Assembly (NCBI GenBank): GCA_965261595.1
Contig: CBDHDG010000006.1
Coordinates: forward strand, 64,001-128,000
Length of the DNA stretch: 64,000 nt
Direction of reading: 5' to 3'
Origin: a bacterium
GTDB taxonomy: Bacteria > UBA8248 > JACPRG01 > G963555815
Part shown: positions 285 through 45,581 of the stretch, piece after piece
Layout of the letters: every line of letters begins with the position of its first letter
Numbering within the stretch: the first letter of the stretch is position 1
Program-made: the position numbers and the translations under genes
The notes under the pieces: generated by a model
The model's input: only the letters and a program-made list of their open reading frames with translations
What the model was told of the DNA's origin: nothing
Database searches by the model: none

Positions 285-926
285 TCACGCCCCGGGGCGG
301 CCTGACGGGGGCATGCGCGTCAGCCTGAAAAGAACCAACAATCCCTCTTCCCAGCGCTCGATCCCCAGCCCCCGCGCGGGCAGCGTATCGACGGCTTCGG
401 CGACCGTCATCGGACCCGTCTCGTGGAGGCCGCCGAACTCGGCGTGGACCTCGGCCAACAGGTCGAGACCGGCGGGGTTCATGTCCGCCACGACGACCCG
501 CCCCCCCGGGCGGCAGACGCGAATCATTTCCCCGACGGCCCGGGCGGGCTCAGTCATGTGGTGAATCAGGTTCGCCGACGCCACCAGGTCGAAGCTTTCT
601 TCCGGAAAAGGCAGCCGCGCGGCGTCCCCCTGGAGAAAGCGAATCCGGTCCTCCACCCCGGCCGCCCGCGCGTTGCGCCGGGCGACCTCGATCCCCTCCC
701 CTTCGAACTCGATGGTGGCGACCCCCGCCCCCCCCCTCCCTCCCTCTTTCGCGAGAAGAATGGCCAGACGCCCCGGCCCGGTTCCCACGTCCAGAACCTC
801 GCCCGCCACCGGCCGGCCGCATTCGACCACGCGGGACCGCATCGCGTCCACGTCGTAGCCCCGCTGCCGGAGCACGCGACGGCGGTCCTCCTGGTCGCCG
901 AATCCCTTTTCCACGCTATCGGCCAT
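285..926 (-). CDS. Class I SAM-dependent methyltransferase
   Basis: VLDVGTGPG motif I, GDAARLPFPEESFDLV and RVCRPGG; start placed at MADSV after a GAGGGAG RBS. Confidence 0.85.
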   Translation of the reverse strand: MADSVEKGFGDQEDRRRVLRQRGYDVDAMRSRVVECGRPVAGEVLDVGTGPGRLAILLAKEGGRGGAGVATIEFEGEGIEVARRNARAAGVEDRIRFLQGDAARLPFPEESFDLVASANLIHHMTEPARAVGEMIRVCRPGGRVVVADMNPAGLDLLAEVHAEFGGLHETGPMTVAEAVDTLPARGLGIERWEEGLLVLFRLTRMPPSGRPGA

Positions 927-1197
927 TCTCACTCCCTCACCCCGCGTTCGGCGGGCTTTCATCGACATGAAACTTCGGCCGCCCCTCATTCACGTATTGA
1001 CGCGGGACGCCGCTCCCCTTTACCGTTATTGATTGTGCCCGAATCGCCCGCAAACGGCAATCCGCCGCTCCCGGACGCGGATCCCGGCGGCCGGGCTCCA
1101 TCAGCGGACCCACCATCCGGCGGGCCGGGCCGGGTCCTTTGTGATTCGGGGGTCCACGTCCGCCCAATCCCCATCGCCTGGAAGGACCCATCCAAAG

Positions 1198-3943: not shown

Positions 3944-5152
3944 TCATTTGCCGTCCGGTCTGTCCAGATGAAAAAGTTTCAACGCCGTCTCGCCCAGGAT
4001 GTTTCGCTTGGCCTGATCGGAAAGGAAGGGCAGATCGAAGATCGTACTGGGCAAATCAAAATCCTGATGCGGCCAATCCGAGGCGTAGAGCAACTGGGTC
4101 TCGGCCTTCATCATCTTCATCGTCAGCTCGAGCGCCTCCAGGTTGTGCCGCTCCATCGGCTGGGAGGAAAAAAACATCTCGCGGATATACTCGCTCGGCA
4201 GCCGTTTCAGCGCCGGGGCCTCCGAGGAGCGCAACATGTACTCGCTGTCGAGCCTTTGCATGATGAAGGGGATCCAGGACAGGCCGCTCTCGAGCCAGAT
4301 GACCTTGAGCTTGGGAAAGCGCTCCGGGAGGCCGTTGAGCACCCAGTTGACCAGATGCACGAGGTTCCACAAAACGAAGGCCACGCAGTGCATGCCGACG
4401 AACTGGTTGAACAGCGCCATGGCCGGCTCATGCCAATAGTACCCCCCGTGGAAGGCGAGCGGCAGACCCCGCTCCTCCAGCGCCGCGTACACCTTCATGT
4501 ATTGATTTTCCTGGATGGCCTTGTTCCGCACGCTGGTCACCATGAACCCGATGACACCGGGCTCCTCGCCGAATTCCTCGATCACCTTCAGGGACGCCAC
4601 CGGATCGCTGATGGGCAGGTAGAGCATCGATTTGATCCGGTTATCGGCCTTGAGGAGATTCTCCACCATCCACCGGTTGTGCGCCCGTCCCAGGAGGACC
4701 TCCATGTGGAGCTGCGGGTGCGTGCCGAGGCTCAGCATCGGCGTCGGGAAAACAACCTGGTAGTCGAGGCCCATGCTCTCCATGGCGCGCCGGGTGAGGA
4801 CAACGTCGCGGTGGACGTCCGTCTCCTCGACGGTTTCATTCCGGGCCGTGTCGTGGGGGATGCGGCCGCCGACATCCTGGTAGGTCATTCCGCGATCGCC
4901 GATCAGGCCGTAGGGATTGGCCTTCTGCGACGTGACGGCCTGGGAGCGAATCACCGGATCTTCGATATACTCGCAAATCTCGCCCCAGTGGACGGTCTCG
5001 ATGTGGTGGGCGTCAACATCGAAGATCACGTAGTCCTGATAATTCCGCTCTTCCGCCTGCTGCCTGGCGTTCGCCAGGATCTCGCGCGTGTCCGTGTGGA
5101 CGTCGATCTGCTGGATCGGGACCTCATGGATCTTTTCGGTTCGTTGAGCCAT
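3944..5152 (-). CDS. Amidohydrolase-2 fold metalloenzyme, possibly a dinuclear oxygenase
   Basis: DVDAHH, LAFH, WLESG and ASDWPH motifs; NILGETA tail. Confidence 0.85.
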   Translation of the reverse strand: MAQRTEKIHEVPIQQIDVHTDTREILANARQQAEERNYQDYVIFDVDAHHIETVHWGEICEYIEDPVIRSQAVTSQKANPYGLIGDRGMTYQDVGGRIPHDTARNETVEETDVHRDVVLTRRAMESMGLDYQVVFPTPMLSLGTHPQLHMEVLLGRAHNRWMVENLLKADNRIKSMLYLPISDPVASLKVIEEFGEEPGVIGFMVTSVRNKAIQENQYMKVYAALEERGLPLAFHGGYYWHEPAMALFNQFVGMHCVAFVLWNLVHLVNWVLNGLPERFPKLKVIWLESGLSWIPFIMQRLDSEYMLRSSEAPALKRLPSEYIREMFFSSQPMERHNLEALELTMKMMKAETQLLYASDWPHQDFDLPSTIFDLPFLSDQAKRNILGETALKLFHLDRPDGK

Positions 5153-5333
5153 CTTCCTCTCCCCACACAACCTCACACACCCGCCTTGCCTTTGCCCATC
5201 CGAGGCCCCAGGCGGTCCCTACCCCCACGAGGTGATTCTATCCCAGGGGCCTCTTCGGCACGAGGATTTCTTCCTCATCAAAAAACGCGGCGCCGGGCAA
5301 ACATCCCGGTACCGCGCCCCCTCCATCTCCATC

Positions 5334-29756: not shown

Positions 29757-31453
29757 CCCGCATTTCCCATATGGATGATAATTTTTAACGCCCCGAAGGC
29801 CGTTTTCTCGTGTAAAATCAAGGTGTTGGCCTCTCCCTGCCATCATCTTGCGAGGGGACCCGATGGGTGAAGCGAAAAAGAGGCCGTTGAGGCTCCAATT
29901 CGACGGTCGGCTCAGGCTGGAGTTTCACGGAGCAAAGGTTACGAGTGACGCCGGTTTGCTTGCCTATCGTGAACTGGATGAGGTGTTGGGGCTGACGAAG
30001 GCGGCCGAGGGGTTTCTGTCCGATTCACGGACGGGCGGGAACACCCGGCACAGCCTCACCGCTTTGGTGCGCCAGTCGGTCTACAGCCGCCTGGCAGGAT
30101 ATAAAGACACCAATGATGCCGAGCGGCTCTGTGTCGATCCCGCCATGCGTCAGGTGGTTGGGGGGCGAGCGAAGTATCACACCGCTGCCTCCACCAGCCA
30201 GATGAGCCGATTCGAGACGCAGACCCTCACCCGGCCCCTTAACCCCTCAAGGCGCTGAGCGGTCTGCCCGGTGTGTTGGTGGATCGTGTCCGCAAACGCA
30301 AGCCGATTCGCAAGCTGATCCTGGACATGGACAGTTCGGTCAGCCCGACCCACGGTGAGCAGGAAGGCTCTTCCTACAACGGCCACTTCGGCTGCACCTG
30401 CTATCACCCACTGTTTTGCTTCAACCAGTTTGGCGATCTGGAGCGGGCGCTGTTGCGCAACGGCAAGGTCCACAGCGCTGATGACTGGTGGTCTGTATTG
30501 GAGCCGGTGGTAGCTCGCTACCGGGATGCGAAGGTCTGTCGGTTTTTTCGAGGCGACGCGGCATTTGCCAAGCCGGAGGTGTACCGATACCTTGAGGCGG
30601 AGGGCTACTCCTATGCGATTCGGCTTCCGGCCAACGCCATCTTGTACAGGGACATCGAATGCCTTCTGACCCGGCCGGTTGGCCGACCGCCCAAAAGGCC
30701 CATTATCTTCTACCACAGCGTCTCCCCTATCAGGCGGCTAGTTGGGAGAAGCCTCGCCGGGTGGTGGTGGCGGTCGAGTGGCACCAGGGCGAGTTGTTTC
30801 CAAGAGTCAGCTTCATCGTGACCAACCTGCACTGGCGGGAAGAGAACGTCGTGAGGTTCTACAACCAGCGTGGGACGGCGGAGCAGTGGATCAAGGAGGG
30901 CAAGTACGCCCTGAACTGGACGCGCCTGTCCTGCCACGGCTTTGAAGAGAACCAGGTTCGCTTGCAACTATTTGCCTTGGCGTACAACCTGGCAAACTTC
31001 CTGCGGCGGCTGGCGTTGCCCAGAGCGGTGAAGCACTGGTCGCTGACGACGTTACGCGAGAAGCTGATTAAGATTGGGGCCAAGGTGGTCACCCACGCCC
31101 GGCACACCACCTTCCAGATGGCCGAGGTGGCCGTGCCGCGTCAACTGTTCAGGGCAATCCTTGAACGAATTCGACGGTTGTGGTTACCGCCTCCCGTACC
31201 AGATACCGGATGACGGAGCAGATGGCCCGGAAGCTTAGTGACGTGGTGGAGACGGGGGATCAGTCTGTGCCGAACTCCCCTGAGTGTGCCGGTAGAGCTG
31301 GGTTTTCAAGGGATTGCGGCTTTAGGACGGCCGTTGCCCCTCGATTGAGCAGAGGGTTCTGCAAAGAGACCCTGAATCTGTAGTAAAATGGGGTACTTTG
31401 ATGACACAGGAGGACCACAGGATGGCTAAGAGTGGTCATCTGGGAAATCCCGG
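29757..31453 (+). mobile_element. IS1380-family element (~1.7 kb); transposase 29863-31213 with two frameshifts
   Basis: [55 protein letters not shown] across three frames. IRL CCCGCATTTCCCATATG; IRR reverse complement CCGGGATTTCCCAGATG. Confidence 0.92.
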
Positions 31454-38277: not shown

Positions 38278-39759
38278 TCAGCCTTTGACCTCCGCAATGG
38301 AACAGATGGTTTCTCGTCCCCGGGACTTGGCCCACTCGAGGGCCCGGAGCCCCTGGGCGATGAGTCTTCCCTCGGCGTCCCCGTCCTGGGGAAACACAGC
38401 CAGCCCAAAGTGCACCGAGAGCCGGAACTCGATGGATCCGGCCCGGAGATAGGAGTTTTCCAGCGTGTCCTGAAGCCGTCCGGCCGTCTCTCGGGCCGCA
38501 TCGAGATCTTTGCCGACCAGGGCCATCACAAACCGGCGACCGAGACACCGCGCCAGCAGGTCCGGCTCATCCAGAGACCGGCGGTAGAAATCAGCCAGCT
38601 CGCGCAGGAGTGAGTCGCCCGCCTCGCGGCCCCGGTCCGCGTAGACTTCCTGAACCTCCTCGGAGTCGGCGATCAGGATGGACACCGGGCGCAGGGTGTC
38701 CGACGCCAGGGCGAGGGCGTCGGTGAGACGGGCGGTGAAGGCCGGATAGGCCGGCAACCCGGTCACATCGTCCAAGGCCCCCAGACCCTCCCGGCGCGCC
38801 CGCATCCGGGCGGCGGCCAGCGCCCCCGAGGCCAGGCCTTGGAGCAGCTCCGCCGCGGCCAGCTCGCGTTCGTCAAAACCTCCGGCCTCGGCCCGCGCGA
38901 ACGCCAGCAGGCCGAAGACCTCCCTCCCCCCCCCTCCCTCCCCCCCCCCCGTGCTGAGCGGAACACCGAGAAAGGCGCCCAACGGCCGGCGGGCCTCGGC
39001 GGGGTGGAACAGGTGGGTCTCCCGCAGCTCGTCCTTGATGGTCGGGAGATGAAACGTCTCTCCGTGCGTCAGCACCCAGCCCGCGAGACTGCTCTCCATG
39101 GACACCGACAGGCCGATGGGCGTGTCGGCGCCGTGCGTCACGCACCGGACGACGCGAAACGCCTTCTCCCCCGGCGCGCGCCAGACGAGCGCCGCCGTCT
39201 CGCACTTCAGCAACCGTTTCGGGATGTTGCAGGCCGCGTCGAGGACCGCGTCGGCGTCGCCGGCGGCCGTGATGGGCGCCGCGTAATCGCGAAGGGCTTC
39301 CAGGGTGACGAAGTCCCGGCCGATCCGCCGGTAGACGTCGCTCTTTTCGAGCATCCGCGTCACCTGATCGGCGAAACCGATGAGGAGTTTTTGGACCTTG
39401 GGGGTGAAGACATACTGCCGCTTGCTGTCGATGAAGAGGACGCCGGTCCCGCCGGGCGTGGCCACCGGGACGGCCAGGAAGGATTTGATGTCCTCCTCGG
39501 CGCGGTACAGCCCGAGGGCCTTGAGGTCATGTTTGAACTCGGTGGAGTGGAGCGGATCGCCGCGCTCGGCCACCCAGCCGATGAGGCCCTGGCCGACCTC
39601 GATCTCCCGGTCCTTCAGGACATGGTCGCTCAGGCTGTGGCAGACGCGAAGCCGCAAAGGCCCGTCCGACTCCCGGGGAACGAACAGGGCGGCCGTATAG
39701 GCGTCGGTGACGTTGCTCAACAGACCGATCAGGCTCTGGAGATCTTCTTCGAGTTTCAT
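38278..39759 (-). CDS. GAF-GAF-degenerate GGDEF protein
   Basis: GQGLIGWVA / IKSFLAVPV GAF, a second GAF (SLAGWVL, FLGVPL), then DDVTGLP and SVHFGLA; the A-site reads CLGRRF. Start uncertain. Confidence 0.75.
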   Translation of the reverse strand: MKLEEDLQSLIGLLSNVTDAYTAALFVPRESDGPLRLRVCHSLSDHVLKDREIEVGQGLIGWVAERGDPLHSTEFKHDLKALGLYRAEEDIKSFLAVPVATPGGTGVLFIDSKRQYVFTPKVQKLLIGFADQVTRMLEKSDVYRRIGRDFVTLEALRDYAAPITAAGDADAVLDAACNIPKRLLKCETAALVWRAPGEKAFRVVRCVTHGADTPIGLSVSMESSLAGWVLTHGETFHLPTIKDELRETHLFHPAEARRPLGAFLGVPLSTGGGEGGGGREVFGLLAFARAEAGGFDERELAAAELLQGLASGALAAARMRARREGLGALDDVTGLPAYPAFTARLTDALALASDTLRPVSILIADSEEVQEVYADRGREAGDSLLRELADFYRRSLDEPDLLARCLGRRFVMALVGKDLDAARETAGRLQDTLENSYLRAGSIEFRLSVHFGLAVFPQDGDAEGRLIAQGLRALEWAKSRGRETICSIAEVKG

Positions 39760-40013
39760 CGAGGCAGGGGAAAAAAGCCGTCGGGAAAAATCATCACCCC
39801 CTGACGGTACCACACCCGGGGGGGCGTCCGCAACGTGATTTTCCGGATGTGAAATCCCGGTCTTCATGATCCGGATCAGGGTTCTCACCGATTGCTGGGC
39901 AGTCGCCTGGATTTCTCACCAACCATCCGACGGGCCGGGTTCGTTTAACGCCAAGGCGATCCGCAGATTGGAAAAGGCCAAAGAGAAAGACACACTTCAA
40001 TCGATCCGCAGAC

Positions 40014-40040
40014 GCCGTCCCCGCGCAGGCGGGGATTCCG
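40014..40040. repeat. REP-like palindrome
   Basis: TCCCCGCGCAGGCGGGGA, a variant of the 48997-49023 element in opposite orientation. Confidence 0.55.
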
Positions 40041-40247
40041 CAGATTACCCAGATTTGGAAAAGGGCAAAGACAGAGACACAAGACGGGCATTCGGCCATA
40101 AAAGTCGGGGTTCTGGTTTGACTGTTTGTGAGAAACAGGGATTGGCATTTGGCCTCACCGGGCTTTTAAGGCAAAATTCCCAGGAAGGGGGAGGCATTTA
40201 CACGGATAGTTTCGACCGTGACGCACGCCCCCGGGAGAGGGTTCACG

Positions 40248-43211
40248 ATGCCGCGTGAAGAGGCGGATGGCCCAGGACGGCTGAAGGACCTGCTGGCGGA
40301 GATCGACCCCGACGTTCTCCGGGAAGTCATGCCCTTCACCGGGGGGGTTGTGACGATGATGTTCACCGACATCGTGGACTCCACGCCGATCAAGGCTGAG
40401 ATGGGTGACCAACCGTTTCGCGAGAACGTCCTGAATCCGCATAACACCCTCATCCGGGAATGTGTTGGTCACCACAACGGCCAGGAGCTCAAGACCATTG
40501 GCGACGCCTTCTTCGTCGGCTTCGCCCTTCCCGAGAATGGCGTGGCCTGCACCACTGAGATCCAGAAGAATCTAACCAATTCTCCAATCCAAGCGGGCGC
40601 GGCCGCGCTCCGGGTCCGGATCGGCCTTCACACCGGAACGCCCGAAGTCTACCGCGATCCCGTCTCGAAACTCATCGACCTTTCCGGGACGGACGTGGAC
40701 AGGGCGTCGAGGGTCGTGGCTTTGGCGGGTGGAGGACAGATCCTCATCTCCGATGAGACCCATGCCCTGGCGAAATCGAAAGAGGTCCACGATTGGGGAT
40801 TCTGGGAGCTGAAGGGCCTGGGGCGGCATCGGATTTTCGAGGTCCTGTGGGAGGGCAAAACACCCGAGCGGCCTTCCGGCCGTCCGTGGCTTAAGGCCGG
40901 GCGGTTCCCCACGCGGTTCGTCGGCCGCGAGGCCGAGATCGCCGAGGTCATGGACGCCGTGGAGAGCGAACGGCTCGTCACCCTCACGGGGATGGGGGGA
41001 ATCGGAAAAACGCGGCTTGCGGACGAGGTCGCGGCGCGGATGGGGCAGGGATTCGAGGACGGCGTCTTTTTCGTCGATTTGGCGGATATAGAAGATTCGG
41101 AAGCGGCGGTGGTCTCGGAGATCATTTCCCGAATCGGGATCGATCCGGCGGGGTTCCCGGACGAGGCGGCGGCGGTTCGGGAGACCCTTCGGAACCATCG
41201 CGCGCTCCTGGTCCTGGACAACTTCGAGGCCGTCATGTCGGCCGCGCCGTTCATCGGGAGGCTGCTCAAGGAGTGCCCGGGGCTTCGGTTCCTCGTGACC
41301 TCCCAGCGTCCACTCGGTCTGGACGGAGAGCAGCGAATCCCCGTGCGGCCGATGGACGTTGCGCCGTCAGAATCCTCCACCGATGCCGATTCATTGGGCC
41401 GCATGGACGGATTCAAGCTTTTCCGCGACCGCGCGCGGCTGAATGACCGCAAATGGGAAGTGAGCGACGCCGATGCGGCCGTCGTCGCCGAAATCCTGGA
41501 ATCGACCGACGGCATCCCCCTCTCCATCGAGCTCGCCGCCGCGAGGGTCGGGAAGGAACCGCTGAACGCGATCAGAGAGGGTCTCAAGGCGAGGCGTATC
41601 GAGTTCCTCAAGCGGGCCGGAGACACGGCTGACGAGAAGCGCCACGCGGGCATCCGGGCGTGCGTCGACTGGTCGTTCAACCTCTTGCCGCTGAAAGAGC
41701 GCACCCTCTTCCCGAAGCTCTCCGTCTTCGTCGGAGGGTTCTTCGCCGACGGCGCCACCGGGGTCTGCGGGGAGAAGAACGCCCCCGCGCTCCTCGATTC
41801 CCTCCGTGAAAGATCCCTTCTCGTGTGGGAGGAATCGCTGGGGAAGGCCCGGTACCGGATGCTCCCCACCGTCCGGGAGTACGCCGCCGAGAGGCTTGGC
41901 GATAAGGCGGAAACAGTCCGGCAACGCCATGCTGAACACTTTCTGAACGTCCTTGACCGTGCCAACGTCCAGATTTACGGAAAAGAGCAGATGACCGGGA
42001 TCAACCGGATCTCCGCCGACCTGGAGAACATCCGCGGCGGGATGGACGCGGCGGTTCGGAACGGCGATCATCTGGCGGTCGTGAGGCACTCCCAGGCATT
42101 CGGTGAATACTTTCAGATGAAGAGTCTTTTCGCGGAATCGTTACGGCGTGGACATCAAGGCCTCGCGTCGGCCGAGGCTTTGAAAGACGACGAGGTCATC
42201 GCGGGCTGCCGGAACAACCTGGGGAATGCCTACATGAGCCTTCCGGCGGGGGACCGGAGAGAGAACCTCAAGAACGCCATCGAATCCTACGAGGCCGCCC
42301 TGCGGGTCTATACCGAGGACGGGTTCCCGGTTCAGTGGGCGGGGACGCAGAACAACCTGGGTGAGGCCTATAGGAACCTTCCGACAGGCGACCGGGGGGA
42401 GAACCTCAAGAACGCCATCGGGTGCTACGAAGCCGCTCTGCGGGTCCACACCGAGGACGCGTTCCCGGTGGATTGGGCGATGACGCGGAACAACCTGGGC
42501 ACCGCATACTCGAACCTTCCGAGAGGGGACCGGGGGGAGAACATCAAGAAGGCCATCGAATCCTACGAGGACGCCCTGCGAGTCAGGACCAAGGACGAGT
42601 TCCCGGTTCAGTGGGCGATGACGCTGAACAACCTGGGCATTGCCTACAGGAACCTTCCGGCGGGCGACCGGGGGGAGAACGTCAAGAACGCCATCGGGTG
42701 CTACGAGGCCGCCCTGCGGGTCTATACCGAGGACGGGTTCCCGGTTCAGTGGGCGGGGACGCAGAACAACCTGGGCGAGGCCTACCGGAACCTTCCGGCG
42801 GGGGACCGGGGGGAGAACCTCAAGAACGCCATCGAATTCTACGAGGCCGCCCTGCGGGTCTATACCGAGGACGGGTTCCCGGTTCAGTGGGCGGGGACGC
42901 AGAACAACCTGGGCGAGGCCTACCGGAACCTTCCGACGGGGAACCGGGGGAAGAACCTCAAGAACGCCATCGGATGCTTCGAGGCCACCTTGCGGATCTA
43001 CACCAAGAACGGGTTCCCGGTTCAATGGGCGATGACGCAAAACAACCTGGGCATTGCGTACAGGGACCTTGAGACGGGGGACCGGGGGGAGAACGTCAAG
43101 AAGGCCATCGGGTGCTTCGAGTCCGCCATCCGGGGATACGAGGCGGCGGGGCTTGCGGAAAAGGCGGAAGAGGTCAGGCGGGAGTTGGATTCGTTGAAGG
43201 GGGAAGGGTGA
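40248..43211 (+). CDS. Class III adenylate/guanylate cyclase - STAND (NB-ARC-like) ATPase - TPR protein
   Basis: MFTDIVDST, KTIGDAF, VRIGLHTG, GGQILIS, LKGL; GMGGIGKTRLA, LVLDNFE, GIPLSIELAAAR; seven NNLG repeats. Confidence 0.9.
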   Translation: MPREEADGPGRLKDLLAEIDPDVLREVMPFTGGVVTMMFTDIVDSTPIKAEMGDQPFRENVLNPHNTLIRECVGHHNGQELKTIGDAFFVGFALPENGVACTTEIQKNLTNSPIQAGAAALRVRIGLHTGTPEVYRDPVSKLIDLSGTDVDRASRVVALAGGGQILISDETHALAKSKEVHDWGFWELKGLGRHRIFEVLWEGKTPERPSGRPWLKAGRFPTRFVGREAEIAEVMDAVESERLVTLTGMGGIGKTRLADEVAARMGQGFEDGVFFVDLADIEDSEAAVVSEIISRIGIDPAGFPDEAAAVRETLRNHRALLVLDNFEAVMSAAPFIGRLLKECPGLRFLVTSQRPLGLDGEQRIPVRPMDVAPSESSTDADSLGRMDGFKLFRDRARLNDRKWEVSDADAAVVAEILESTDGIPLSIELAAARVGKEPLNAIREGLKARRIEFLKRAGDTADEKRHAGIRACVDWSFNLLPLKERTLFPKLSVFVGGFFADGATGVCGEKNAPALLDSLRERSLLVWEESLGKARYRMLPTVREYAAERLGDKAETVRQRHAEHFLNVLDRANVQIYGKEQMTGINRISADLENIRGGMDAAVRNGDHLAVVRHSQAFGEYFQMKSLFAESLRRGHQGLASAEALKDDEVIAGCRNNLGNAYMSLPAGDRRENLKNAIESYEAALRVYTEDGFPVQWAGTQNNLGEAYRNLPTGDRGENLKNAIGCYEAALRVHTEDAFPVDWAMTRNNLGTAYSNLPRGDRGENIKKAIESYEDALRVRTKDEFPVQWAMTLNNLGIAYRNLPAGDRGENVKNAIGCYEAALRVYTEDGFPVQWAGTQNNLGEAYRNLPAGDRGENLKNAIEFYEAALRVYTEDGFPVQWAGTQNNLGEAYRNLPTGNRGKNLKNAIGCFEATLRIYTKNGFPVQWAMTQNNLGIAYRDLETGDRGENVKKAIGCFESAIRGYEAAGLAEKAEEVRRELDSLKGEG
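42213..43140 (+). repeat. Seven tandem 138-bp (46-aa) TPR-type coding repeats
   Basis: AACAACCTG at 42213, 42351, 42489, 42627, 42765, 42903 and 43041. Confidence 0.95.
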
Positions 43212-43334
43212 CGTAGTTGCTCGATGGGGCATGGGGCGGGGATGCTTCGCCGCGCTCGACACAGGCCCCGAACCCACCCCCCGCATCTTTCGAAAAGCGC
43301 TGAAAAATTGTTTCCCCCCAGGGGTCGCCATTGG

Positions 43335-43500
43335 TGTCATTCCGAGCGCAGCGAGGAATCTCGCATTGTTGTTGCACCGATTGTCGGATCACGCTACGGG
43401 AAGGGCCACGGCGAGACCCTCGGGTCGGTTGACCCTTCGTTGCGATGCGACTTCCGGCCTTCCTTTCCGGACGCTGTTCGCCCGTCGCTCAGGGTGACAG
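43335..43500. repeat. REP-like extragenic element(s)
   Basis: TGTCATTCCGAGCGCAGCGAGGAATCTC (43335-43362) and a partial inverted partner TCGCTCAGGGTGACA near 43485-43499. Confidence 0.55.
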
Positions 43501-43566: not shown

Positions 43567-44556
43567 TCAAAGACCCAAAATCCCGGCGGCGGTCCCGCCC
43601 AGGATCCCTTCCCTTTGCGTCCCGGTCAATCCGGGCATTTCCTCGACGGCGGAAACGGAATCATCGGTCCCCATGTCGAAGGGAAAATCCGACCCCAGGA
43701 ACAGCCGGTCCGGCGAAACCCAATCGAGCATCAGGCGGTAGGCCTCCGGATCGTGCGTGACCGTATCGAAAAAGAGCCTTCCGAAGGCGCGGCTCGGAGG
43801 CTCGGAGAGTTGCCGGCGGCACTCTTCACGCACCTCCCACCCGTGGTCCCAGCGGCCCAACAGCATGGGGGCGACGCCGCCCACGTGGGCGAAGCCCAGC
43901 CGCAGGCCCGGATGGCGGGCCGGGAGACCGCTGAAGATCACCCGGCCGATCGCCCAGGCGGTGTTCATCGGAAGACCGCACAGGTTCTTCAGGTAGGCCA
44001 TCCCGAGGTGGTCCTGGCCGATGAGCCACTGGGAATAGGGATGGACGAAAACAAACACCCCGAGATTTTCCGCCTCGGCGAAGAAGGGATCGAGGGAGGG
44101 ATCGTCCAGCGGAAGACCGTGGATGGAGCTTCCGATCTCGACCGCCCGCATCCCCAGCTCTTCCCGGACGCGCCGGAGCTCCGCGCAAGCGGTTTCGGGA
44201 TCCTGAAGCGGGACCGTTCCCATGGCGGCGAACCGGCCCGGATGGGCGCGCACGATCCCGGCATAGGCGTCGTTCACGACGCGGGCGAGCTCGAGGGCGC
44301 GTTCCGGGGAATCGGAGTAGTGAAACATGAACGTCGGCGGGGAAATCACATGGAGGCCGACGCCCGCCGTCTCCATCCGCGCGAGATGGGCCTCGGGCGC
44401 CCGCAACGCCGTGGAAACCGGGAAACGGTAACTGCCCGTGACGACGGCAAGCTCGCCGGTTGCGTTTTTTTCGAGGGTGAGGGAGGAGGCCCCCCTGATT
44501 CGGATCTCCTCCAAATAGGCGTCCGGGATGAAATGGGTGTGGGCGTCGACGCGCAT
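43567..44556 (-). CDS. Amidohydrolase-2, ACMSD-like decarboxylase family
   Basis: VDAHTH, GTVPLQDP, FVHP, AHVGG, GSDFPFDMG. Confidence 0.88.
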   Translation of the reverse strand: MRVDAHTHFIPDAYLEEIRIRGASSLTLEKNATGELAVVTGSYRFPVSTALRAPEAHLARMETAGVGLHVISPPTFMFHYSDSPERALELARVVNDAYAGIVRAHPGRFAAMGTVPLQDPETACAELRRVREELGMRAVEIGSSIHGLPLDDPSLDPFFAEAENLGVFVFVHPYSQWLIGQDHLGMAYLKNLCGLPMNTAWAIGRVIFSGLPARHPGLRLGFAHVGGVAPMLLGRWDHGWEVREECRRQLSEPPSRAFGRLFFDTVTHDPEAYRLMLDWVSPDRLFLGSDFPFDMGTDDSVSAVEEMPGLTGTQREGILGGTAAGILGL

Positions 44557-45581
44557 CAGCCGTCCGCGCCCTTCCCGTCCCCCACGCCGAAAAACCGGAG
44601 GGCGTTTCCTCCCAGGAGGTCCCGGCGGGTTCCTTCATCCAGGCCCGGCAGGTCGCGGATCGACCTTCCCGGGGGATCCTCGCCCATGTCGAAGGGATAG
44701 TCGCTCCCCATGAGGACGTGGCCGGGCGCGGCCTTGGCCAGGAGGTAAGAGAGGGCCTTGGGGCTGTGCGTAATCGAATCGAAGTAAAGGCGCTCGGCGT
44801 AAACGCTCGGGGGCTCGGGGATGGCGGCCCGGCACTCGGGCCGGACCTTGTATCCGTGGTCCAGGCGGCCCAGCAGGATGGGGAAAAAACCCCCGCCGTG
44901 GACGATGCAGAGCTTGAGGCGGGGGAAACGCTCCAGGACGCCCGCATAGATGAGGCGCGCCGCCGAAACCCCCTCGTCGAAGACGAACCCGGCCAGGTTG
45001 TCGAGGAAATAATCCTTCAACAGGGCGTCGTCCGGGAACCGGTAGGCGTGGACGATAAGGCGGGCCCCGAGCGCCTCGGCGCACTCGAAGAAAGGCCAGA
45101 ACTCCTCCTCGTCGATGTAGCGGCCTTCCACGTTCGAGCCGATGATGGCCTCGAGCAGACCGTGTTTTTCCACCGCGCGCTCAAGGACGCGGACGGCCCG
45201 CGGGACGTCCTGAAGCGGGACCGTGCCGACGGCGAGGAAATGCTCCGGATGCGCCCGGACCAGGCCGCCATACGCCTCGTTCGCCGCCTCGGCCAGCTCT
45301 TCGCAGAGGGCGGCCTCGGTCCAGTAGAGCATCATGTTGGCCGGGGAGGGCGAGAGGATCTCCAGGTCCACCCCCTGCTCCGCCATCGCGCGGATGCGGA
45401 ACTCGATATCGCGGTGCCGCTCGTCCACGGGGGTCCGGTAGAAACGGGCCTGGATCATGGGGCTGCCGTCCGGCCCCCGCTCGAAGCGGACGTCGAGGCG
45501 GTCCGCGTCCCGCTCCACCCGGCGCAGGTAGACCTCGGGCAGAAAGTGGGTGTGCATGTCCACCACCGGAGCGGCCGGCAC
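44556..45581 (-). CDS. Amidohydrolase-2, ACMSD-like decarboxylase family
   Basis: VDMHTH, GTVPLQD, VHGGG, GSDYPFDMG. Confidence 0.88.
   Translation of the reverse strand: MPAAPVVDMHTHFLPEVYLRRVERDADRLDVRFERGPDGSPMIQARFYRTPVDERHRDIEFRIRAMAEQGVDLEILSPSPANMMLYWTEAALCEELAEAANEAYGGLVRAHPEHFLAVGTVPLQDVPRAVRVLERAVEKHGLLEAIIGSNVEGRYIDEEEFWPFFECAEALGARLIVHAYRFPDDALLKDYFLDNLAGFVFDEGVSAARLIYAGVLERFPRLKLCIVHGGGFFPILLGRLDHGYKVRPECRAAIPEPPSVYAERLYFDSITHSPKALSYLLAKAAPGHVLMGSDYPFDMGEDPPGRSIRDLPGLDEGTRRDLLGGNALRFFGVGDGKGADG

Follow-up and report, generated by a model that had tools for sequence, protein, structure and literature searches.

Does this gene, which carries a nucleotide cyclase, a STAND ATPase and an array of TPR-like repeats on a single polypeptide, encode an immune-like alarm or an ordinary signalling receptor? 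Our analysis indicates that its role may be either one, and for its clade we lean towards a surveillance or conflict (immune-like) role over routine regulation. The locus lies in a window of 64,000 nucleotides, by which we mean the whole stretch of DNA analysed, and is one intact gene comprising a class III cyclase, a STAND ATPase of the NB-ARC/NACHT-like type, a helical arm and seven 46-residue TPR-like repeats (Table 1). An alternative in-frame GTG start at 40218 gives an ORF at 40218..43211 (+) of 997 aa (P0001). Its twin P0002, a database protein of 987 aa with 100% identity, begins instead with the ATG at 40248, in agreement with the extent initially assigned to the gene, and GGGAGAGGG is located 7-15 nt 5' of this ATG. 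As first described, the gene is opposed to its neighbours: it is on the plus strand, and the nearest clearly coding genes on either side are on the minus strand. A foreign origin by composition was considered and rejected, because the GC content of the gene (0.637) is about that of the window (0.633) and gives no compositional sign of such an origin. We found no tRNA or RNA elements in the window.

Table 1. Positions of the gene, its domains and motifs, and the upstream region. Residues are numbered on the GTG form (P0001); numbers for the ATG form are lower by 10.
Feature	Position	Strand	Residues, evidence or remarks
Cyclase-STAND-TPR protein, whole gene	40248..43211	+	987 aa from ATG at 40248
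Class III nucleotidyl cyclase domain	40347..40826	+	Residues 44-203; Pfam PF00211, Ma1120 sequence and fold match
Cyclase key residues			D51, K92, D96, R134, D154, D161 (where Asn is expected), R165
STAND nucleotide-binding oligomerisation domain (NOD)	40914..41864	+	Residues 233-549; Pfam, AfsR match, Foldseek, motifs
Walker A, GMGGIGKT	40989-41012	+	Residues 258-265
Walker B, LLVLDNFE	41205-41228	+	Residues 330-337
GxP motif, G432-I-P434	within 41505-41525	+
Helical arm/linker between NOD and repeats	41865..42212	+	Residues 550-665; AF2 helices 550-655; boundaries estimated
Seven tandem 46-residue TPR-like units (138 bp each)	42213..43178	+	TRF, Pfam; presumed sensor
Divergent intergenic region shared with the GAF-GAF-GGDEF-like gene	39889..40247	.	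GC 0.557 vs window 0.633
27-nt direct repeat	39968-39994 and 40055-40081		Within the intergenic region

The centre of the protein is a NOD that exceeds the Pfam cut-offs for both NACHT (34.4 vs 26.7) and NB-ARC (31.0 vs 23.5) and matches the AfsR NOD by sequence (E 1.4e-4). The initial annotation had described the Walker A, Walker B and GxP motifs as intact, and all three were located; K264 and P434 are each conserved in 37/37 full-length relatives. The AF2 model of the protein (pLDDT 86.4) matches PH0952 (6mfv) and Apaf-1 (1z6t) in Foldseek, with an NBD-HD-WHD core, an arm and a repeat sensor. The term 'arm' is borrowed from the description of PH0952/MalT, and the Apaf-1 structure matched by fold is an ADP form. 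STAND-TPR autoinhibition and multimerisation are described for PH0952/MalT (PMC6468293), and a mechanism of the same type is described for AfsR (PMC10936776). A transcription regulator of the AfsR/MalT type was itself rejected as an identity for the protein: the Pfam scan detected no DNA-binding effector domain and no HTH family, confirming the reported absence of a C-terminal HTH, and the NCBIfam AfsR model scored 46.1 bits vs a cut-off of 1430.

By analogy with these systems, oligomerisation-gated cAMP synthesis by the cyclase-STAND-TPR protein is likely. At rest, the STAND core (NBD-HD-WHD) would be loaded with ADP and locked shut by contacts of the arm and the TPR sensor. Binding of a ligand, most likely a protein or a peptide, to the seven-unit TPR array would release this lock, upon which ADP would be exchanged for ATP and the STAND cores would multimerise. 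Multimerisation would gather the N-terminal class III cyclase domains and allow them to pair and convert ATP to cAMP; cyclase active sites are found only at the dimer interface, so the domains would have to pair to become active. The output would be a cAMP burst or a drain on ATP, acting on unlinked targets. We therefore propose, tentatively and with somewhat less than even confidence, a cytoplasmic single-polypeptide NLR-like receptor that makes cAMP on oligomerisation and serves in surveillance or conflict; the order of the domains, the motifs with their conservation, the similarity of fold, the exchange of effectors among close relatives and the polymorphic repeats are observed, while the binding of a ligand, oligomerisation, activation of the cyclase, its product and an immune function of any kind are inferred. 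The initial annotation had proposed ligand-induced oligomerisation and cyclase dimerisation in an undescribed system. The anatomy and the mechanism fit the conserved catalytic set, the AF2 model, the match to 6mfv and the comparison with Ma1120, but the word 'undescribed' has to be withdrawn.

The cyclase-STAND-TPR architecture is in fact already known. The cyclase stands immediately N-terminal of the same ATPase in 127 of the best 150 cluster representatives, the family counts 46,323 representatives at E <= 1e-30, and relatives carry the JGI label 'predicted ATPase/class 3 adenylate cyclase'. In the Kibby et al. preprint, cNMP cyclases are listed among the N-terminal effectors of bacterial NACHT/NLR-related proteins, as are TIR, trypsin and calcineurin-like phosphoesterase domains, and Kaur et al. 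(2020) place cNMP cyclases among the N-terminal effectors of other conflict systems as well. The usual member of the family ends in TPRs and has no HTH, and GerE (PF00196) occurs in 0 of the 120 matches listed. In the literature searched, we found no tested function for any TPR-ended cyclase-STAND member.

The relationships of the NOD give the first hint of what such a receptor may do. In the NOD tree the query clade has 49 rows, 41 of them cyclase forms, on a 100/100 branch; its non-cyclase heads are TIR (P0029), trypsin (P0054) and metallophosphatase (P0126, P0053), and the LuxR, SARP and XRE forms fall across that branch. These effector swaps are few (4/71 rows), and 3/4 come from contigs of ~4 kb. 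The alternative heads agree with the published effector list for bacterial NLR-related proteins. The nearest relatives come from different phyla, namely a Methylomirabilia MAG (59%) and Alphaproteobacteria MAGs (51% and 48%). Four proteins that flank the gene share 96.8-98.6% identity with their counterparts in a sister genome, whereas the cyclase-STAND-TPR protein there is only 75% identical and is shortened at both ends. Carriage of close relatives by plasmids or phages was rejected, as the matches (513 plasmid records, mostly from Rhizobium, Streptomyces and Sinorhizobium, and 4 weak records from phage collections) are all below 60% identity.

The repeat array varies too. Pfam TPR_12/TPR_10 matches extend across residues ~650-990, and TRF resolves the array with a period of 138, 6.7 copies and 84% matches, units 1-6 being 80-93% identical in DNA. 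Repeat units number 5, 6, 7 and 8 in the four proteins of the 90% cluster, whose first ~660 residues are 98-99% identical. Assembly collapse in metagenome bins could account for part of these differences in repeat number. Positive selection among the repeat units was considered and set aside: mean dN is 0.145 and mean dS 0.241, giving a dN/dS of ~0.6 that is raised but not decisive. The polymorphism in repeat number makes the sensor a promising place to seek the ligand.

The surroundings of the gene point to no fixed partner. The divergent neighbour at 38278-39888 has two GAF domains, of which the initial annotation made no mention, and a GGDEF site that reads LGRRF. The GAF fold binds cNMPs in some proteins, and we considered this GAF-GAF-GGDEF-like gene as a conserved partner or cNMP receptor; tblastn found no match to it beside any of the 79 related loci, and it was therefore rejected as a conserved partner. 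When all seven window neighbours were searched with tblastn against the same 79 loci, no shared neighbour emerged, the sole match being one weak Mo-hydroxylase. Synteny around the gene is not conserved. An 88-aa ORF at 43231-43497 was likewise rejected as a downstream partner, having a low GC3 (0.66), no Pfam match and no counterpart in L002/L003, and no conserved partner gene was found in the loci examined. No sigma-70-like promoter was called in the intergenic region. The early statement that no cNMP-binding effector is adjacent holds, since Pfam cNMP_binding is lacking among the scanned predicted proteins of the window, though the divergent neighbour has its GAF domains.

Nor did we find a defence neighbourhood. 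PADLOC returned 0 families for the protein at E <= 0.01 and, for 81 neighbours in the window and L001-L003, generic-domain matches only (ABC ATPase, methyltransferase, RNase D-like, NUDIX). By Pfam content these neighbours are metabolic or housekeeping. The 135 genes closest to 41 distant cyclase-STAND loci likewise have metabolic or regulatory content, and no defence genes lie nearby in any of the 45 loci (the window, 3 close and 41 distant). Homologue neighbourhoods had been suggested as a place to look for defence-island enrichment and for cNMP receptors. The former was not observed in the 45 loci; for the latter, a CRP-type cNMP_binding regulator lies directly upstream at one distant locus (L009). 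The interpretation first put forward is only partly sustained. An immune role would be in keeping with the swapped effectors, the polymorphic repeats, the rapid divergence and the lack of synteny, which may be taken as indirect signs of a conflict gene, and it is weakened by the empty PADLOC result and the lack of a defence neighbourhood.

The main competitor is ordinary signalling. Here the protein would be an AfsR/MalT-like STAND receptor cyclase whose TPR array senses an endogenous cue (a metabolite, a peptide or a partner protein), with no defence role, and cAMP would act on unlinked receptors such as CRP-family or GAF proteins, of which the divergent GAF-GAF-GGDEF-like neighbour may be one. 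At 36-41% identity, the broader NOD family is composed of AfsR-type regulators fused to LuxR, SARP, XRE or kinase domains, interleaved with cyclase forms, and a plain signalling role is thus a natural default. The very large size of the family, its frequency on rhizobial and actinomycete replicons, metabolic or regulatory neighbourhoods in 45/45 loci, the CRP-type regulator at L009 and the absence of PADLOC matches all favour the same view, as does the mycobacterial relative Rv0386, which is active as a cyclase although its substrate residues are unusual (PMC3466318). However, the query NOD clade is split off by its 100/100 branch and takes TIR, trypsin and metallophosphatase in place of the cyclase, not an HTH; identity to the sister genome drops to 75% vs 97-99% for the flanking proteins; repeat copy number is polymorphic; and the GAF-GGDEF neighbour accompanies none of the related loci. 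On this balance ordinary signalling is a possible role, and one that we hold with some doubt.

Both of these readings have the protein making cAMP, and the cyclase domain bears on whether it can. Pfam Guanylate_cyc (PF00211) matches this domain with 67.7 bits vs a cut-off of 21.9. The two metal Asp residues (D51 and D96), the Lys of KTIGD (K92-D96) and the Asp of DLSG (D154), all reported at the outset, were found and align with those of Ma1120, in which K92, D154, D161 and R165 correspond to K101, D157, A164 and R168. The change of the NxxxR motif to DRASR (D161-R165) was also borne out: R165 of the transition-state Asn-Arg pair is kept and D161 replaces the Asn, leaving the pair incomplete. 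Conservation is high in the 37 full-length relatives (D51 37/37, K92 31/37, D96 35/37, D154 35/37, R165 37/37) and in 67 close cyclase domains (D51 67/67, K92 57/67, D96 65/67, D154 65/67, R165 67/67). The transition-state Asn position is occupied by D in 29/37 and N in 8/37 of the full-length relatives, by D in 57/67 and N in 9/67 of the close domains, and by H in 107 and N in 62 of 181 distant domains, so the canonical Asn is often absent.

The substitution raises the possibility that the domain yields another product, or is a non-catalytic nucleotide-binding module whose output passes through protein contacts. The frequent absence of the Asn is in keeping with this, and some conflict proteins carry catalytically inactive cyclase domains, according to Kaur et al. 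(2020). Against it, the remaining catalytic residues are near-invariant in the clade, which argues for selection on catalysis, and K92 and D154 form the ATP-specifying pair of Ma1120. Ma1120 itself has Ala at the Asn position and yet is active, and putting the Asn back is harmful, the A164N mutant losing activity (PMC4215837). Because Ma1120 is active without the Asn, we regard the lost Asn at 161 by analogy as not disqualifying, and we consider a protein that makes no cAMP unlikely.

A further question is whether cAMP would be the message or the weapon. The gene could encode a one-gene bacterial NLR with the cyclase as executioner, in which the fast-changing TPR array would recognise an invader protein, the STAND cores would assemble and pair the cyclase heads, and an ATP drain or cAMP flood would stop growth. 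This reading needs no receptor gene, which would explain both the lack of a linked receptor and the TIR, protease and phosphoesterase heads at the same position; we nevertheless judge it improbable. Class III cyclases are usually signalling enzymes of modest turnover, and it is very doubtful that the switched-on cyclase acts as a direct effector, arresting growth by draining ATP or flooding the cell with cAMP in parallel with the NAD-consuming TIR head, even if such a role, again with no receptor gene, would suit a stand-alone gene without a conserved partner, the self-acting heads (TIR, trypsin, phosphoesterase) of sister proteins, and the effector in the same chain that most bacterial NLR-related proteins cited in the Kibby et al. 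preprint possess.

The choice between a surveillance receptor and ordinary signalling matters because few multidomain cyclases of soil and marine bacteria are as common as the cyclase-STAND-TPR proteins. If the clade is an immune sensor, cAMP or ATP chemistry would be added to the outputs of bacterial NLR-like proteins, in a simple system whose oligomerisation could be read as a cyclic nucleotide. If the role is ordinary signalling, the STAND switch that AfsR/MalT couple to a DNA-binding head would have been re-used with an enzymatic head.

Several known systems share parts of this design. Pycsar employs a class III-type cyclase fold as its signal generator, as the query does, but the query has no PycC match and no adjacent cNMP-binding effector, and its cyclase is fused to a STAND sensor; the solo cyclase in L002, detected at 8e-14, served as a positive control for the PycC models. 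Avs and bacterial NACHT antiphage proteins have the same tripartite plan of N-terminal effector, STAND core and C-terminal repeat sensor, and the query differs from them in matching no PADLOC model and in having no defence neighbourhood. The 46-residue 'NNLG.AY...FP..WA.TQ' repeat type recurs in CHAT (caspase-like)-TPR proteins, found in filamentous cyanobacteria, and 91/119 of the other best matches to residues 655-997 carry CHAT (PF12770); we count this shared repeat among the signs of a conflict-type gene. Unlike the query, the CHAT proteins lack both a STAND core and a cyclase, and their effector is C-terminal.

Closer parallels exist for each half of the protein. Ma1120 of Mycobacterium avium (PDB 4wp3, 5d15) is the top match of the cyclase domain both by sequence (E 2.8e-22) and by fold (Foldseek TM 0.87-0.91, rmsd 2.1-2.4 A); the two have the Lys/Asp substrate pair and the absence of the Asn in common. 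Ma1120 differs in its Ala where the query has Asp and in that its solved chains (171-210 residues) consist of the cyclase domain only. PH0952, a STAND-TPR protein in the resting state, is the best PDB fold match (6mfv, E 1.9e-14, 779 aligned columns). PH0952, MalT and AfsR have the NOD-arm-TPR layout in common with the query, whereas their effector is a DNA-binding domain and that of the query is an enzyme. The mycobacterial proteins Rv0386, Rv1358 and Rv2488c likewise place a STAND-type ATPase after an N-terminal class III cyclase but end in a LuxR HTH, in contrast to the TPR repeats of the query, and plasmid-borne mycobacterial relatives are only ~34% identical to it. The JGI-labelled cyclase-STAND-TPR proteins have the same domain order and motifs as the query, and it is among these that its clade stands out, by the 46-residue repeat unit and by Asp in place of the transition-state Asn.

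The cyclase-STAND-TPR protein is encoded by the sole long ORF of its frame with domain matches (Table), and because the 100% identical database protein P0002 starts at the ATG at 40248, with GGGAGAGGG directly upstream, 40248–43211 is the likely gene. Residue numbers below are those of the GTG form, P0001; the ATG form is obtained by subtracting 10. The motif readings of the initial annotation stand: D51 and D96 are the two metal-binding Asp residues, K92 (in KTIGD) and D154 (in DLSG) the substrate residues, D161 takes the usual class III Asn position ahead of R165, altering NxxxR to DRASR, and the Walker A, Walker B and GxP motifs are intact (GMGGIGKT, LLVLDNFE and GIP). The absence of a C-terminal HTH was also confirmed, Pfam detecting no DNA-binding family in the protein. 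An AF2 model computed with 37 relatives as input is confident (mean pLDDT 86.4, pTM 0.69) and runs from a cyclase domain of mixed alpha/beta structure, through an alpha/beta nucleotide-binding domain (NBD) that includes helical and winged-helix parts, to a long helical arm and then a regular array of helical repeats.

Table. Coordinates of the cyclase-STAND-TPR gene, its domains and features of related loci
Feature	Position	Strand	Remarks
ORF with GTG start	40218-43211	+	
Likely gene (ATG start)	40248-43211	+	
Guanylate_cyc	residues 44-203		Pfam, 67.7 bits, cut-off 21.9
NACHT and NB-ARC	residues 246-439		Pfam, both above cut-off
TPR families	residues ~650-990		Pfam
138-bp tandem repeat	42212-43134		Tandem Repeats Finder
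GAF-GAF-GGDEF-like gene	38278-39888	-	upstream, divergent
27-nt direct repeat	39968-39994, 40055-40081		89% identical, 87 nt apart
DDE_Tnp_1_4 fragments	29848-30258, 30659-31213	+	profile positions 4-113 and 276-433 of 435
Amidohydro_2 genes (three)	43567-45581, 3944-5176	-	two in tandem directly after the cyclase-STAND gene
Solo class III cyclase, locus L002	15558-16133	+	191 aa, 2.4 kb downstream of the close homologue
CRP-type regulator, locus L009	2130-2876	-	cNMP_binding + HTH_Crp_2; directly upstream, divergent

The idea of an undescribed system was not upheld. A HMMER search with residues 1–650 against 1.84 billion cluster representatives returned 46,323 proteins at E <= 1e-30; among the best 150 of these, all 150 contain the STAND nucleotide-binding oligomerisation domain (NOD), immediately preceded by a cyclase in 127, and JGI labels such relatives 'predicted ATPase/class 3 adenylate cyclase'. 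The protein is thus one of a known, very widespread and functionally uncharacterised design, and a literature search, mostly beyond subscription journals, found a function for no TPR-ended cyclase-STAND protein. Confirmed relatives in reference genomes number 562, only three of them close (a Methylomirabilia MAG at 59% and Alphaproteobacteria MAGs at 51% and 48% identity); the other loci, at ~27–40%, belong to Actinomycetota, Chloroflexota, Acidobacteriota and other phyla. Three giant relatives of 2,960–3,933 aa (P0252, P0265 and P0268) carry three or four NODs per chain and no cyclase.

The neighbourhood of the gene is metabolic or housekeeping in content. Beyond the GAF-GAF-GGDEF-like gene lie genes for MreB, a UPF0047 protein and a molybdenum hydroxylase subunit; the downstream side, entirely minus-strand, has the Amidohydro_2 pair followed by a RidA-like gene, and ABC transporter genes; and the rest of the window holds metabolic and transport genes plus one insertion-sequence gene, a DDE transposase broken into two fragments ~9 kb upstream. 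An Amidohydro_2 gene also occurs 4 kb upstream of the homologue at L002, probably by coincidence. The 27-nt direct repeat lies in the divergent intergenic region, where GC is low (0.557) and no sigma-70-like promoter was called, each copy being preceded by the word CCGCAGA(T/C). As first annotated, no cNMP-binding effector is adjacent, and no cNMP_binding domain was found in any scanned predicted protein of the 64-kb window. The GGDEF site of the divergent neighbour reads LGRRF, so its product is probably not a diguanylate cyclase; since certain proteins bind cyclic nucleotides through GAF domains, it is a possible local cAMP target. A CRP-type regulator was found once in the 41 distant cyclase-STAND loci, beside the cyclase-STAND-TPR gene of a Thermomicrobiales MAG (L009).

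The search of homologue neighbourhoods for defence islands was negative in the window, at the three close homologues (L001–L003) and at the 41 distant loci. PADLOC gave no match to the protein itself and only generic-domain matches among 81 neighbours from the window and L001–L003, whose flanks are housekeeping genes that differ at each locus. At the distant loci, the pair of genes closest to the cyclase-STAND gene on either flank (135 proteins in all) is metabolic or regulatory with few exceptions: the L009 regulator, paralogous cyclase or NB-ARC-TPR genes (L016, L017) and a PD-(D/E)XK nuclease (L015). Seven window neighbours, including the GAF-GAF-GGDEF-like gene, adjoin none of 79 related loci.

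Relatives of the NOD alone (residues 225–650) fall in two identity layers. At 43–63% nearly all carry a cyclase, the exceptions being P0029 (TIR_2), P0054 (Trypsin_2), P0126 (Metallophos), P0053 (a weak Metallophos_2 match) and P0038 (DUF4062 ahead of the cyclase). At 36–41%, in a layer of AfsR-like regulators, the head is LuxR, SARP/BTAD, XRE HTH, Ser/Thr kinase or cyclase. Two trees agree, a quick one of 107 NODs and a careful one of 59 (LG+C20+F+G4); in the latter our protein falls in a clade of 49 rows (support 100/100), 41 of them cyclase forms. The TIR form nests there with cyclase forms in a group of eight rows (90/91), and the trypsin and metallophosphatase trio (99/97) within a clade of 14 (97/93); LuxR, SARP and XRE forms lie across the 100/100 branch. 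As a caveat, head swaps account for 4/71 rows from the quick tree, three of the four on contigs of ~4 kb.

The sensor also varies. Its 138-bp unit (6.7 copies, 84% matches) translates into seven 46-residue units from residue 666; units 1–6 share 80–93% DNA identity, differ mostly at positions 5, 8, 12, 24–25 and 33, and show a mean dN of 0.145 and a mean dS of 0.241. The four members of the protein's 90% cluster, 98–99% identical over the first ~660 residues, measure 895, 942, 987 and 1033 aa, corresponding to 5, 6, 7 and 8 units, a polymorphism that is only probably real, since repeat collapse in metagenome-bin assemblies may contribute. The Pfam 'TPR-S' sensor model scores 21.8, below its cut-off of 27.6, and exceeds it in two repeat-sharing relatives. 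A search with residues 655–997 showed that this repeat type is shared mainly with CHAT (caspase-like)-TPR proteins of filamentous cyanobacteria (PF12770 in 91 of the 119 other matches listed, CHAT content being confirmed for two); the remainder are AAA_16-TPR and metallo-beta-lactamase-TPR proteins. In a sister genome the counterparts of four flanking proteins of the window (MreB, the Mo-hydroxylase, an amidohydrolase and a Y-family polymerase) are 96.8–98.6% identical to them. The counterpart of the cyclase-STAND protein, P0049, reaches just 75% identity, across 528 residues, and its predicted form is missing both ends: residues 1 to ~98, with the first metal Asp and KTIGD among them, and the entire TPR array. 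Decay of the copy, replacement of the allele or a frameshift error could each account for P0049.

Plain second-messenger signalling is a serious contender, suited by the lack of defence association in 45 loci, the missing partner gene, kinship with regulators and the great size of the family. The heads found among sister proteins, the repeat polymorphism, the fast divergence and the absence of synteny suit an NLR-like surveillance receptor, and on this clade-specific evidence we tentatively place it slightly ahead.

Ma1120, a Mycobacterium avium adenylyl cyclase, is the best match of the cyclase in sequence (E 2.8e-22) and in fold (TM 0.87–0.91), and HMMER aligns K92/D154/D161/R165 with Ma1120 K101/D157/A164/R168, a numbering consistent with PMC4215837. 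According to that paper, Ma1120 is active despite Ala at the Asn position, and A164N sharply lowers activity. In 67 close cyclase domains, D51 (67/67), K92 (57/67), D96 (65/67), D154 (65/67) and R165 (67/67) are conserved; the residue at 161 is D in 57 of them and N in nine, and among 181 more distant cyclase-STAND proteins it is H in 107 and N in 62. Conservation of the catalytic residues alongside variation at the 'Asn' position speaks for, without proving, an active, ATP-using enzyme and, with Ma1120 active without the Asn, makes an inactive or re-purposed cyclase unlikely. A cyclase acting directly as effector, by draining ATP or flooding the cell with cAMP, would account for the missing receptor; it is the boldest of the readings and seems to us marginally less probable still.

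The active sites of class III cyclases lie at a dimer interface, so induced multimerisation would be a natural on-switch for an N-terminal cyclase. For related STAND proteins the switch is known: the NOD alternates between an ADP-bound closed state and an ATP-bound open state that multimerises. In TPR-sensor STANDs (PH0952/MalT) both arm and sensor keep the NBD closed until inducer binding (PMC6468293); in AfsR, NOD and TPR inhibit the effector until ATP binding relieves this (PMC10936776). By analogy, we infer that an inducer would open the NOD with ATP, allowing multimerisation and switching on the cyclase. Nothing here would surprise a specialist, and the protein is a reasonable candidate for testing cyclase-headed STAND proteins as immune sensors.

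Among known systems, PH0952, a STAND with a TPR sensor, is structurally nearest to the model (6mfv, E 1.9e-14). Mycobacterial cyclase-STAND proteins end in LuxR, whereas ours ends in TPRs without an HTH; as none of the 120 matches listed for the protein has a LuxR/GerE domain, the TPR-ended form is, from these matches, the common one and the mycobacterial form the special case. Pycsar PycC models, as a positive control, match the L002 solo cyclase (E 8e-14) but not ours. Kaur et al., 2020, place cyclic nucleotide cyclases in conflict systems, and the cyclase, TIR, trypsin and calcineurin-like phosphoesterase heads of our clade match the effector categories of bacterial NLR-related proteins in the Kibby et al. 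preprint.
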